Assembly: GCA_964520445.1 (NCBI GenBank)
Contig: CAZFNU010000001.1
Span: 1 to 30,698 of the forward strand
Source of the DNA: an uncultured Candidatus Saccharibacteria bacterium
GTDB taxonomy: Bacteria; Patescibacteriota; Minisyncoccia; UBA6257; JAKLIH01
DNA length: 30,698 bases
Reading direction: 5' to 3'
The position numbers and the translations under genes are program-made. This document shows positions 26,875 to 30,697 of the stretch, one piece after another. Numbering within the stretch: the stretch's first letter is position 1; every line of letters starts with the position of its first letter. A model generated the notes under the pieces. It searched no databases and was not told the DNA's origin. It saw only the letters and a list, made by a program, of their open reading frames with translations.

Positions 26875-26946
26875 TCCGCGGTAGTTGAGTGGTACAACGC
26901 CTCCCTGTTAAGGAGGATTTCGCAGGTTCGAGTCCTGCCCGCGGAG
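26875..26946 (+). tRNA. tRNA-Asn(GTT), probable integration site
   Basis: TCCGCGG/CCGCGGA acceptor, CCTCC-ctGTTaa-GGAGG anticodon arm, GCAGG-TTCGAGT-CCTGC T-arm. Confidence 0.95.
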
Positions 26947-28410
26947 CATTGTAGGACAGTTGTTAAATTTGAGCATAGTATTAAACGGTTCTCGTACCGT
27001 GAATACTAGCTCTTTTTCTTTTAACTGAAGGTTCTGAAGTACGAAACTTAGAAGTTGCTTTTTCTCTTCCACTTCAGAACTTTCAAATATTTCTCTAGCT
27101 CTCTTAGCTAAATTAAGCACCAAACTAGCGGTTATATAGAAATTTTCATCTGCATTGGTGTGTCTCGACATTTCTTCTTGTATATCTGCTTGTTTATTTT
27201 TTCATTCTTTTAATTTAGCATTAAATACATCAGGAGGGATCTGTCCGTCAGCTAATAAATTAAAAGCATTGCTTATTCTGGTATCTATTTGGCTATACTC
27301 CTTTTGTAAATTGTCTAAAGCTAATTGATGAAATTTATTTTTAGATTCATTAGTACTCTTTAAGTTTTCTGTTATTTTATTTATTTGATCATCCGTGAAT
27401 TTCATATTATCTAAAACATTATATATCGGAGTCAAAAGATCTTCTTCTTTACAGTACAATACTTTCTTATGAAGTCTCCTATAATTTGTACAATGATAAT
27501 AATGATGACCCTTAGAAGTTTCAGGAGTTATCATACAGCCACATTCTGAACAGGTGATCATTCCTCTGAAAATATATGGTTTGGCTGCATAATGAAAGGG
27601 TTTCTTGTGATAACCTAATGATACGGCTTGGCATCTATTAAACAAATCTTTACTAATTAAGGGCTCATATTTATGAGGGTATAATTGATCTTTAATTTTC
27701 ATAACTCCATAATAAAACGGGTTATTAATTATTTTGTGTATCATACTCTTGGGTAAGGGATTATGTACTTCGGTATTTCCAGTTAGTCCCATAGTTTCCA
27801 TTTCTTTTGTAATATCTAATAATGAATAATTCCCCGTAGCATACATTTCAAATATTCTAATGATATATGATGCTCTTTCTGGATCTGGAATTACATCTTT
27901 ATCTTCGTTTTTTGTGCTTATATAGCCAATAGGGGACTTTCCAATTCATTCTCCATTTTTAATTTTATTTTCATAAGCCCTTTTAACACTATCACTAATA
28001 GAATCTGAATAATATTTAGCCAAGCTTACACCTATAGTAAACCTAAATAAATCAGTAGCAGGTGAGTCTTTAGTTAATATTATATTATCTGAAGGGAAAT
28101 GAAGCTCTATTTTGCCCTCTTTCCTTAATTCTTCCAATGTAACTAATTCTTTTGTAAAATTTCTTATCAATCTATCAATTTTATCGCAACATAAGGAAAG
28201 AGGCTCTTTAGAAGTTTTTAATGTTTCCACAACTTTGCTAAATTCTTCCCGTTCTGTTTTGAAAGCACTTTCATCGAAACTTAACTCTTTTGCAATAACG
28301 AGATTCTTTTCTATGGCATATTTTCTTAATCTTAATACTTGAGCTGGCAAAGAATTTCCCGCTTCTTTTTGTTCTTCAGTTGAAACTCTTGCCAATAGTA
28401 TAGCTTTCAT
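26908..28410 (-). CDS. Large serine recombinase (resolvase + recombinase + Zn-ribbon; 500 aa, table 4)
   Basis: MKAILLARVSTEEQ..SLPAQ catalytic Ser motif; KIDRLIRN; NGE-W(TGA 27948)-IGKSPIGY; NNPFYYG; CSECGC..YYHC Zn ribbon; second TGA 27204; ends LRGQDSNLRNPP* antisense to tRNA-Asn. Confidence 0.93.
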
Positions 28411-28436
28411 ATTTTTAATTTAGTATTTTAATTAAA

Positions 28437-28554
28437 AGGACAGCCCTGCTGTTGAATAGAGACACCTGGTCCAAAAAGAATCAGACATCGCTAAACAGGA
28501 CTGCCCTTTTAATAGGGCGATGCCAATTATTCTTGAACCAATCTCTATTCAACA
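28437..28554 (-). ncRNA. Structured 5' leader of the recombinase (long hairpin plus putative pseudoknot)
   Basis: 13-bp perfect outer stem extended by two further helices. A loop segment can pair over 11 bp with a segment 3' of the hairpin. All non-WC pairs but one are G-U on the minus strand only. Confidence 0.65.
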
Positions 28555-28559
28555 TTTTG

Positions 28560-28588
28560 ATTGTATCATAATTCATTTTATTTATCAA
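28560..28588 (-). promoter_or_regulatory. sigma70 promoter of the recombinase
   Basis: Minus strand TTGATA (28588-28583)-17-TACAAT (28565-28560) with extended TG; predicted +1 near 28553-28554. Confidence 0.7.
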
Positions 28589-28793
28589 GTTTGCCCTGTT
28601 TATTTTTCATATTAGAGTTAAAATACTCATCGTTCGGCTTTTTGTAATACTCTGGATGATTTCGCATATCAATCTGTAGGAGTAAATTAAAAAAATCAAA
28701 GAGCTCATCGCCATTAGCTGAAGATTCTTTTTCTAGTCTAAAGTCAACTATTTTTTCTGTCTCTTGATTTTTATATATTTGTTCTCCTAGCAT
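28578..28793 (-). CDS. Small hypothetical protein upstream of the recombinase (71 aa)
   Basis: Open ORF co-directional with its neighbours; FFNLLLQIDMRNHPEYY resembles small ORFs I associate with CPR recombinase loci (from memory, unverified). Confidence 0.6.
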   Translation of the reverse strand: MLGEQIYKNQETEKIVDFRLEKESSANGDELFDFFNLLLQIDMRNHPEYYKKPNDEYFNSNMKNKQGKLDK

Positions 28794-28805
28794 ACAATTA
28801 TTTTA

Positions 28806-29219
28806 TTATTCTTTACTATTTTTGTGTCTTTCGGCAATATCTGTCAGTGCTTCTGCTATCTCTCTTAGATTATCTCGCTTAGTTTCGTCAACTGTTTCAA
28901 CTCGATCACCAAATTCTTCTCTACGTTTGCATTTCAAGTATTTGAATGCTATATCTGGGTCATCTAGGTGTTCAATAATAGTTCGCCTTGCTTTCAATAT
29001 TGGGGTTTGTTTCAACAGCGTTTTTCGCTCCAGAAACCCAGGATGTTGTACTTGATAATTATATAGTGTAGATTCAGAAATATTCGCATAAAAACAACTC
29101 TCTTTGTCGGTTCCATCAAGTGCGAAAACCTCTTCTAGTTTCTGGAGTGTTTCTTTTGTCATTTTTGTTGGTCGCCCCACAATATTTTCTTTTTTTATTA
29201 AATTTTGATTTTCCTCCAT
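28806..29219 (-). CDS. Phage terminase small subunit-like HTH protein (137 aa)
   Basis: GRPTKMTKETLQKLEEVF..TDKESCFYANISESTLYNY..PGF.E..LK.TP.LKARRTI..KYLKCK..EEF, a TerS-like pattern. Confidence 0.7.
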   Translation of the reverse strand: MEENQNLIKKENIVGRPTKMTKETLQKLEEVFALDGTDKESCFYANISESTLYNYQVQHPGFLERKTLLKQTPILKARRTIIEHLDDPDIAFKYLKCKRREEFGDRVETVDETKRDNLREIAEALTDIAERHKNSKE

Positions 29220-29489
29220 TTTTTTAATTTTAATCTTAATTATAACAAAATCTTTTTCTATTCTTTTATATATCCCTAGATTAGGAAACTCGGATTGAAG
29301 CCCCCCTTACCCCCACAGAGAAAAAATAGGTTTGTTTCTTTTGTTGAAACTAGTTGTGAGAGTAAGGACTTTCCAAGCTTTATATATCCCTGAGATTGAG
29401 GTCTCCTCGTATAAGCTTAGCCTTCTGAACTTTTTTTAATTCGCACTCAGAATCTATCCCCTTACGAATAACTCATAAAATTGAGTTTG

Positions 29490-29549
29490 TAGCGAGATTG
29501 GGACTCGAACCCAATATTATTGATTTGTGTTACCGTTACACCACTCGCT
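29490..29549 (-). ncRNA. tRNA-like element lacking the anticodon arm
   Basis: AGCGAG-TG-GTGT(aacggta)ACAC D-arm, 11-nt A-rich linker, ATTGGG-TTCGAGT-CCCAAT T-arm, CTCGCT-A. Confidence 0.65.
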
Positions 29550-29651
29550 TTTTTGCTGATTTTGACATTTAAGCCTATCTATTATTTGTTTTAATATATT
29601 TATCCTATTTTGATATTTTGATCAGTTTTAAGTCATTTTGACCCCCTAAAA

Positions 29652-29879
29652 CTACTCGCCACAGCAGGCTTGGGGGGTGTTTCGAGTATAAAGAAATCTA
29701 AGGATTTGCTTTTTATCGTTTTTATCGTATTCCTCAGGGTTGACCAGTTCTTCAAAGTTCTTTTTTATAACCCTTTTATCGAAGTGTCTTTTTCTGACAA
29801 CATTAGCTATACAGATAGAGTCTGTTCAATAAGGATTTAATGCTTTTGTTTTTAGAAAATTTGCCTTTAATGATTTCAT
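29652..29879 (-). CDS. Small phage-type hypothetical protein (75 aa, table 4)
   Basis: MKSLKANFLKTKALNPY-W(TGA 29828)-TDSICIANVV..NFEELVNPEEYDKNDKKQILRFL; TAG 29652-29654. Not in the ORF track. Confidence 0.7.
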
Positions 29880-29977
29880 AAGTAAAGATTATTTTTTTAT
29901 TAATTAAAATACACTATGCATAAGATAGCATAGCGTATTCATTTTATTATCATTTTTTTTACTTTTTTAGTACCCTT

Positions 29978-30697
29978 CTAAATGATTAATCTTCAAAAAT
30001 CCTGTTCAACACTCTCTATTATTTTCTTTTTGAAATATTTTCGTAATGATTTATTTGTATTGATTTTGCTTATATATTTTGTTATTGTATCTGGTTGAAT
30101 GGAACGATTACATCCAGTTGCATTTTTAATTTCTTCACGGTCAATGTTTGTTTTTGGATTGTTAATAAATAATTCCAGAATTTTTTTGAGTCGATATTCT
30201 AAATCAATTGCTTTGTTATTTAGTATTATGTCATTATTATCTCATATTTGAAACCCTTTATATTCCTTAACGATAAAACGTGGTTTTGTCTTGTGGTATT
30301 TATTATAATTATCGATTTTTTTAATCAAAGTGTCTCTACTGTCAATTAGTTTTTGTGTGTAACCAATATCCATTCACATATCTTTTTGTAAAGTGAGATG
30401 CTCGACAATACTATTTATACTTTTGCTTAAGTTTTTGATAAATTTATCATTTTCGAGATGAATATCAATAATGTATTGGTTGTCATAAATTTTATTATTT
30501 TCCGATGTAGTTATAATAAGTTTAATTTTTTCCGCTATTATAGGATCTACATATTTATCGAAGAAATCAGAATTAATAAGATTTATTCAATTATAATATG
30601 CTATATAAATACCACCTGTATCACAAAATAAAGTTACAGAATTATTATCGTCAATTCTATTTTTTATTTCATTTCCTTCGCTAATTAATGAATCAAT
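29978..30697 (-). CDS. Partial (5'-truncated by window) protein with C-terminal OmpR/PhoB-like winged-helix domain
   Basis: 240 codons open only under table 4 (four TGA). C-terminal LKKILELFINNPKTNIDREEIKNA..DTITKYISKIN..IESVEQDF-W-RLII fits a Trans_reg_C-like wHTH. Confidence 0.7.

Follow-up and report, generated by a model that had tools for sequence, protein, structure and literature searches.

Does a mobile element that spells every one of its tryptophan (Trp) codons as TGA record a long history in hosts that read UGA as Trp? This question is raised by the end of a 30,698-nucleotide stretch of DNA from an uncultured Candidatus Saccharibacteria bacterium (assembly GCA_964520445.1, contig CAZFNU010000001.1), which we refer to as the window. 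The window corresponds to C1:1-30698 of a host genome of 55 contigs, 636 kb and 30% GC; labels beginning with C, L and G denote contigs, compared loci and genomes, respectively. A previous sequence-only reading described an integrated element near the window end as fully recoded, and concluded from this that the element had long been confined to UGA=Trp hosts and that the recoded lineage is old and has its own mobilome. We are fairly confident of a more modest answer, namely that the locus is an integrative element of about 4.07 kb belonging to a UGA=Trp host of the family JAKLIH01, that its Trp codons are at the AT-biased equilibrium of this host, and that the subclade to which its integrase can be assigned has been observed in UGA=Trp hosts only.

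A serine-integrase element at a tRNA-Asn gene

The integration target is a tRNA-Asn(GTT) gene on the plus strand (26875..26947), which was detected by ARAGORN and scored 69.5 bits with the Rfam tRNA model. Its last bases, GGAGC (26943-26947), form the core of the left attachment site (attL), and homology with the element of the sister genome G004 starts there. A second GGAGC core was found at the right end (C1 31008-31012). A run of ten Ns, NNNNNNNNNN, lies directly past the window end (C1 30699-30708; L001 4699-4708) and interrupts the last open reading frame (ORF); C1 is a scaffold and the run is a scaffold gap, and a 244-aa ORF called across it was discarded as an artefact. Beyond the gap, C1 30782-30897 resembles the distal end of the L036 element, and a LOOT RNA (Rfam RF03000) is located on the plus strand at C1 30876-30999 (L001 4876-4999), outside the window. 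After the LOOT RNA come GGGGAGC and a T run; the sequence at this point reads CGCTGGTGGGGAGC, then TTTTTGT, and a matching sequence follows the LOOT RNA in a standard-code relative. The GGAGC core is present at both junctions with no long direct repeat at the element ends, which is what a serine integrase would be expected to leave. We also looked for a second copy of the tRNA-Asn 3' end that could be the right attachment site (attR), and none was found within 19 kb. No empty site for this element was found in relatives, in which the synteny around tRNA-Asn is not conserved; a same-genus genome lacks the region. From the shared cores, we infer that the element spans C1 26948 to about 31012, i.e., about 4.07 kb plus the unsized gap, and that the window holds the integrase-proximal 3.75 kb. 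The extent previously given, 26908-30697, was incomplete in that the last ORF is cut by the gap and the element appears to continue to about C1 31012.

The gene at the tRNA junction encodes a large serine integrase of 500 aa (26908..28410, minus strand) with Pfam Resolvase, Recombinase and Zn_ribbon_recom domains and a match to phrog_95 (2e-74). The catalytic domain (PF00239, 2.9e-19) covers residues 3-155, and the C-terminal part contains PF07508 (6e-13) and a zinc ribbon (PF13408, 9.5e-7). R8, S10 and flanking residues are among the columns that are invariant across 23 homologs, and the integrase retains all of the invariant residues. Its last 13 codons are antisense to tRNA-Asn, giving an overlap of 40 nt. 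The integrase is predicted to perform recombination, with a 2-bp crossover, between the phage-type and bacterial attachment sites (attP and attB) at the short GGAGC core, and would have inserted the element where the tRNA-Asn(GUU) gene ends. Excision would join tRNA-Asn...GGAGC to TTTTTGTATTTC (attB), and the circular form would join the LOOT end...GGGGAGC to ATTGTAGGACAG (attP). The integrase tail (26908-26947 together with C1 30870-31012) depends on the integration state: in the integrated form it ends in ...TMLRGQDSNLRNPP, derived from the tRNA antisense, and the joined element ends predict a tail that runs through the LOOT antisense and gains about 28 residues (39 after the shared ML, compared with 11).

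Upstream of the integrase gene, the non-coding region 28411..28577 (minus strand) contains its promoter and a conserved structured 5' leader, with 74-76% nucleotide identity to G004 and L036 and with 1-nt indels. This structured leader is specific to the recoded-host clade described below and is missing upstream of standard-code relatives. A 99-aa ORF with two TGG codons (28415-28714) was rejected as an element gene, because it overlies the conserved non-coding leader and its sister alignment needs frame-breaking 1-nt indels.

The cargo of the element consists of a homolog of the phage small terminase subunit (TerS), a tRNA-like RNA, an orphan protein and two conserved ORFs of small size, and no virion structural gene was found in the 4 kb. 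By analogy, such a set of genes might belong to a minimal phage satellite, but we hold this reading only tentatively. It is weak because neither a helper phage, nor relatives of the large terminase subunit (TerL), nor a replication gene was found in 12 genomes of the family. Among 80 TerS-carrying IMG/VR contigs searched for recoded phages, the low-GC contigs L127 and L136 looked recoded by ORF length and use the standard code, and the rest gave no sign of recoding.

The cargo could also be read as what is left of a decayed prophage, i.e., an integrase, a TerS and scraps, instead of a self-contained element. In favour of this, TerS belongs to phages, Pfam and PHROG recognise nothing for replication or transfer among the element proteins, and the orphan ORF of at least 239 aa has no relatives. 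However, the compact order of the small ORF p75, the tRNA-like RNA, TerS, a second small ORF and the integrase recurs in L118 and L119 at about 70% nucleotide identity. Furthermore, the tRNA junction and the LOOT RNA, which are both end features of the family, stand 4 kb apart in the element, and all of its ORFs are intact, including an integrase with every invariant residue. We consider a prophage remnant improbable.

Tryptophan codons of the element and its host

The host genome contains a single-copy tRNA with the anticodon UCA (C7 1127-1200). Its acceptor stem AGGGGCG, A1-U72 pair and G73 are tRNA-Trp features, as in E. coli tRNA-Trp, and the three host Gly tRNAs carry U73, unlike tRNA(UCA). 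In-frame TGA codons are found at the W position of the motifs GEMEV-W-ALEAYGA in RpoB, PE-W-...VLPPDLRP in RpoC and SRQRY-W-GEPIP in LeuRS, which are Trp positions in the E. coli proteins. No prfB gene, which encodes RF2, scored over the curated cut-off in the host metagenome-assembled genome, which is 93% complete. Together, the identity of tRNA(UCA), the RpoB, RpoC and LeuRS motifs and the missing prfB give good support for the decoding of UGA as Trp by this host (Minisyncoccia, family JAKLIH01). A PDB search with a 1341-aa protein of the window as a code test returned zero matches. The UGA=Trp code of the host family is known already: a 2026 preprint described a UGA→Trp reassignment, the first for Patescibacteriota, and placed it in the class Minisyncoccia, family JAKLIH01, genus GCA-2747955 (10.64898/2026.05.24.727570), and the sister genome G004 is JAKLIH010000005.1, whose accession JAKLIH01 is the family named there for UGA→Trp.

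The five element ORFs, all on the minus strand and read with TGA as sense, stop at TAA or TAG. TGA occurs in the integrase at codons 155 (27946-27948) and 403 (27202-27204), once in the 75-aa ORF at codon 18 (29826-29828), and four times in the ORF of at least 239 aa (30587, 30374, 30242 and 29993). None of these three ORFs contains TGG, and the 71-aa and 137-aa ORFs have zero Trp codons. The tally for the whole element is 7 TGA and 0 TGG, apart from anything within the scaffold gap; the part from the gap to the right end contains no protein gene. This recount agrees with the earlier one (recombinase 2/2, small ORF 1/1 and last ORF 4/4).

Two of these codons can be compared with their counterparts in relatives. 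The conserved Trp155 of the integrase is encoded by TGG in standard-code homologs and by TGA in the present element, G004, L036, L122 and G007, and the p75 Trp is TGA in the present element and TGG at the same position in L118. By homology, these positions establish the use of UGA as Trp by the element's own genes. Because TGA stands at the conserved Trp155, the integrase would be truncated at codon 155 under the standard code, and because TGA lies within the integrase, the element would be non-functional under that code. The statement that the element genes cannot be expressed under the standard code applies to three of the five genes.

Host Trp usage was counted from crude genome-wide gene calls, which gave 1316 TGA and 756 TGG codons (63.5% TGA), close to the earlier estimate of about 60%. 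The element had been described as more extreme than its host. One reading of this would be a functional cause, such as selection for TGA or a very long isolation, with 7/7 as a sign of great age. Several comparisons point in this direction: the binomial probability of 7/7 at the host frequency is 0.042, Fisher's test against the host genes of this window (42% TGA) gives P = 0.004, and the four TGA-rich elements of the integrase clade, when pooled (48/59 TGA, 81%), exceed the host mean of 63.5% (P = 0.002). However, Trp choice is overdispersed among host genes, as TGA alone is used in 108, and TGG alone in 57, of the 419 genes that have two or more Trp codons. When host genes with two, one and four Trp codons were resampled to match the element genes, 8.2% of the draws were all-TGA (P = 0.082), and 7.8% of the consecutive-gene runs reaching seven Trp codons were without TGG. 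The remaining A/G-ending codon pairs of the host genome are 78-82% A-ending, the same bias as the pooled 81%, and 7/7 is expected about one time in five at that mutational equilibrium. TGG also occurs in sister elements (16 TGA and 6 TGG in the G004 cargo, 20 TGA and 5 TGG in L036), whose TGA share spans 11% to 100%, with L118 nearly TGG-only.

The excess over the host is not significant, and the count matches the roughly 80% A-ending bias of the other codon pairs. A functional cause is very unlikely. The 7/7 count fits a resident element and is not evidence of recoding beyond that of the host. Since AT-biased drift alone yields about 80% TGA, a small all-TGA count gives no measure of age. In the mechanism that we propose, the element lineage would live in UGA=Trp hosts, its Trp codons would have drifted to an equilibrium of about 80% A-ending, and 7/7 would be an unremarkable sample from that AT-biased equilibrium.

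An integrase clade of UGA=Trp hosts

More than 2,700 homologs of the integrase were found, the best with 50-63% identity. Homologs from recoded hosts are 62-66% identical, and standard-code relatives, which are translated with table 11 and have restriction-modification cargo, are 59-61% identical. Among relatives of the same order, in-frame TGA was found only in the copies of the recoded family. The integrases of the present element, G004 (L039), L036/P0002, L118/P0021 and L122/P0034 form a clade with a Shimodaira-Hasegawa-like approximate likelihood ratio test (SH-aLRT) value of 100. Integrases of standard-code bacteria from the candidate phyla radiation (CPR) surround this clade in the trees, and all five of its genomic contexts require UGA as sense.

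One pair of loci bears on the mobility of this clade. L122 comes from GCA_029567295.1, whose ribosomal protein S2 is 100% identical to that of G004. Its clade integrase (L122 1645-3183) is located at the gene for tRNA-Trp(UCA), through which the recoding is put into effect. In G004 this site is empty (L123 = G004:C20, 6598-6672): the flanks of the two strains match at 99.2% identity as far as the final base of the tRNA, after which G004 has a terminator and then an unrelated gene. Because the tRNA(UCA) site is occupied in one strain and empty in the other at 99.2% identity, the clade has recently been mobile in the recoded family, inserting exactly at tRNA 3' ends. The proposal of a separate mobilome for the recoded lineage is borne out by this site polymorphism and by the five-member clade from UGA=Trp hosts alone, and not by the codon count.

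The integrases of the present element and G004 are 66% identical, compared with 63% for the host S2 proteins, 51% for EF-Ts and 51% for RF1 of these two lineages. Judging from these identities, it is possible, although not required, that the two integrases split as early as the genera. A long confinement of the element and an old lineage, as suggested previously, are plausible from the comparison of 66% with 51-63% for host proteins; they are unproven and cannot be derived from the codon count.

In addition to the missing helper, TerL and replication genes, several points weigh against our view of the locus as a resident element of a recoded-host clade. The clade has five known members, and the hosts of L036 and L118 are known by their code alone; a protein from the L118 flank gave no match that would place its host. 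The L118 integrase has 3 TGG and 0 TGA codons and its element 1 TGA and 8 TGG, versus 20 TGA and 1 TGG in the flank (Fisher P = 5e-5), so that TGA enrichment is not uniform in the clade. It is the shared cores and the LOOT position, and not an empty site of the element itself, that place the exact crossover and the right boundary, and the scaffold gap could conceal more sequence. L118 can be read in two ways: either the clade ancestor still used TGG, with TGA appearing repeatedly under AT pressure, or L118 was kept TGA-free. L118 (4325-8358) shows the same TerS-integrase layout, and its integrase adjoins only a tRNA 3' fragment.

A recent import of the element from a standard-code donor, or a reading of UGA as Gly (code 25, as in Gracilibacteria), is refuted: although standard-code homologs (59-61%) are barely more distant than recoded-host homologs (62-66%), code 11 truncates the integrase at the conserved Trp155, the identity of tRNA(UCA) is Trp and not Gly, and TGA falls on Trp positions of the integrase, p75, RpoB, RpoC and LeuRS. 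Both the host and the L118 flank were also considered under code 25, which was rejected on the basis of the tRNA identity and the conserved Trp columns, and which would leave the L118 flank with an implausible 0.1% Trp.

Cargo genes and RNAs

The small conserved ORF next to the integrase gene, p71 (28578..28793, minus strand), encodes 71 aa. With tblastn, homologs of p71 were located beside the integrase genes of G004 and L036 and of 14 or more standard-code loci. p71 has no match in Pfam or PHROG and is a candidate regulator or directionality factor.

The following gene, p137 (28806..29219, minus strand), encodes the 137-aa TerS homolog (phrog_4102, 1e-14). A homolog with 56% identity is located on a 39.6-kb phage contig directly upstream of TerL (phrog_979, 1e-19), a 677-aa ORF and a capsid gene, and relatives of p137 were found on 269 IMG/VR contigs. 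The best fold matches of p137 are weak and point to Sf6 TerS, the best in the PDB, and to viral TerS models.

A conserved non-coding block (29220..29651, minus strand) separates p137 from p75, and the p75-to-TerS block has about 70% nucleotide identity with L118 and L119. It contains a 60-nt tRNA-like RNA without an anticodon arm (29490-29549, minus strand), which scored 28.5 bits with the Rfam tRNA model against a gathering score of 29. This RNA is kept in L118, with a compensatory change from G-C to A-T in the acceptor stem and a 26-nt insertion in the D region. The 75-aa ORF p75 (29652..29879, minus strand) has homologs in G004, L036, L116 and L118 and no match in Pfam or PHROG.

The last ORF (29978..30697, minus strand) encodes at least 239 aa, is open only with TGA as sense, and has lost its 5' end in the gap. 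No homolog was found among 5.8 billion proteins, and there was no Pfam or PHROG match. A single-sequence AlphaFold2 (AF2) model had a predicted local distance difference test (pLDDT) score of 44 and was unusable, leaving the winged helix-turn-helix label of the sequence-only reading unconfirmed.

A CPR-wide family of integrase and LOOT islands

A scan of GTDB species genomes yielded 79 loci over many CPR groups, of which 70 had sufficient sequence for a tRNA check. An opposite-strand tRNA was present at the 3' end of the integrase gene in 54 of the 70 loci (Asn 32, His 11, Gln 5, Leu 2, Arg 2, Trp 1 and Glu 1). In L036, L043, L120, G007, G015 and G029, a LOOT RNA is located at the integrase-distal side, 2-5 kb away and on the strand opposite to the integrase. 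Judged by these shared features, the present element belongs to a CPR-wide family of tRNA-targeting serine-integrase/LOOT islands, which apparently has not been described in papers. Our literature search found no paper tying LOOT RNA to integrases and nothing informative on LOOT. The LOOT RNA of the present element covers the full RF03000 model and scored 67.6 bits against a gathering score of 46.4. It marks the integrase-distal end of an island, as do those of the six further loci. An orphan RNA and a tRNA-targeting clade of serine integrases are thereby tied to one element family.

Fragments of the integrase C-terminus with 43-54% identity and with stops were observed in standard-code families, i.e., in L012 (G035), L011 (G014) and G031:C6 132890-133224. 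L012, the only one of the loci checked for tRNAs that has one, has its integrase fragment adjoining a tRNA-Asn. These fragments are probably scars of lost elements. In addition, group I intron matches were found directly past the 3' end of the integrase gene in L038 (8516-8738) and L044 (5966-6232), and other loci have a plain tRNA at this position. The target tRNA gene in L038 and L044 may carry an intron.

The neighbourhood outside the element

Beyond the element, C1 35847-44147 (L001 9847-18147) contains an array of single-gene units, each of which ends with a 54-nt hairpin repeat closing in TTGGGAGC; a terminator and a promoter come after the repeat. Together with its flank, the hairpin repeat is similar to the tRNA-Asn of G009 at the 3' end and in the trailer. 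The array has the appearance either of units added serially at att-like sites or of a cassette system. In L029 (G004:C53, 9100-9215), a sister integrase with 66% identity is joined to a copy of the hairpin repeat ending in GGGAGC, and tRNA-Asn is found 7 kb upstream on the same contig. Because this G004 integrase is joined to the repeat and not to tRNA-Asn, it seems that the hairpin repeats can serve as secondary attachment sites.

The gene at C1 32470-33924 (plus strand) encodes a TIR/SEFIR-domain protein (phrog_11745, 4e-144), a very strong match, and NYN, 2'-5' RNA ligase, APH and HicA genes come after it. This suggests a defence-rich neighbourhood outside the element.

Implications and comparison with known systems

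The recoded family carries apparently active, lineage-specific mobile DNA, the key enzyme of which is unreadable under the standard code. The argument rests on the phylogeny of the integrase and the site polymorphism and not on the all-TGA count. The family offers a natural test case for whether a code change isolates the mobilome of a lineage, a question that has so far been addressed mainly in engineered recoded E. coli. More speculatively, and in our view unlikely, the five-member clade could be a code-locked branch of the CPR mobilome, in which minimal elements with a serine integrase, LOOT and TerS act as phage satellites in UGA=Trp Minisyncoccia. If this were true, helper phages that also read UGA as Trp would be implied. 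Stop-codon reassignment would then give a one-way gene flow, in which standard-code elements enter, as the TGG-only L118 suggests, and ameliorated elements cannot leave.

Large serine integrases are known from phages and chromosomal cassettes, such as phiC31, Bxb1, A118/TP901-1 and CcrAB of the staphylococcal cassette chromosome mec (SCCmec). Like the integrases of the phiC31/Bxb1 type, the present enzyme has an N-terminal Ser Resolvase domain, a Recombinase domain, a zinc ribbon, about 500 aa and a short GGAGC core. Unlike them, its family targets the extreme 3' ends of tRNA genes (54/70), its ORF enters the tRNA in antisense, a LOOT RNA stands at the element end, and the hosts are CPR bacteria. 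Targeting of tRNA 3' ends is a habit typical of tyrosine integrases.

Phage satellites with their own small terminase include the phage-inducible chromosomal islands (PICIs), among them the Staphylococcus aureus pathogenicity islands (SaPIs), and the phage-inducible chromosomal minimalist islands (PICMIs). The present element resembles these in being compact, located at a tRNA gene and equipped with an integrase and a phage-type TerS, without capsid, portal or TerL genes. It differs from them in that its integrase is a serine and not a tyrosine integrase, that no replication module or AlpA-type regulator was recognised in it, and that no helper phage is known for it. To our knowledge, about 4 kb is smaller than known phage satellites.

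In the UGA=Trp bacteria Mycoplasma and Spiroplasma, integrative and conjugative elements (ICEs), insertion sequence (IS) elements and phages have the reassigned codon in essential genes and are therefore confined to hosts that decode it. The present element likewise uses the reassigned codon of its host inside a key gene. The difference is that its host belongs to the Patescibacteriota and that its recoded clade is visibly nested in a large radiation from standard-code hosts.

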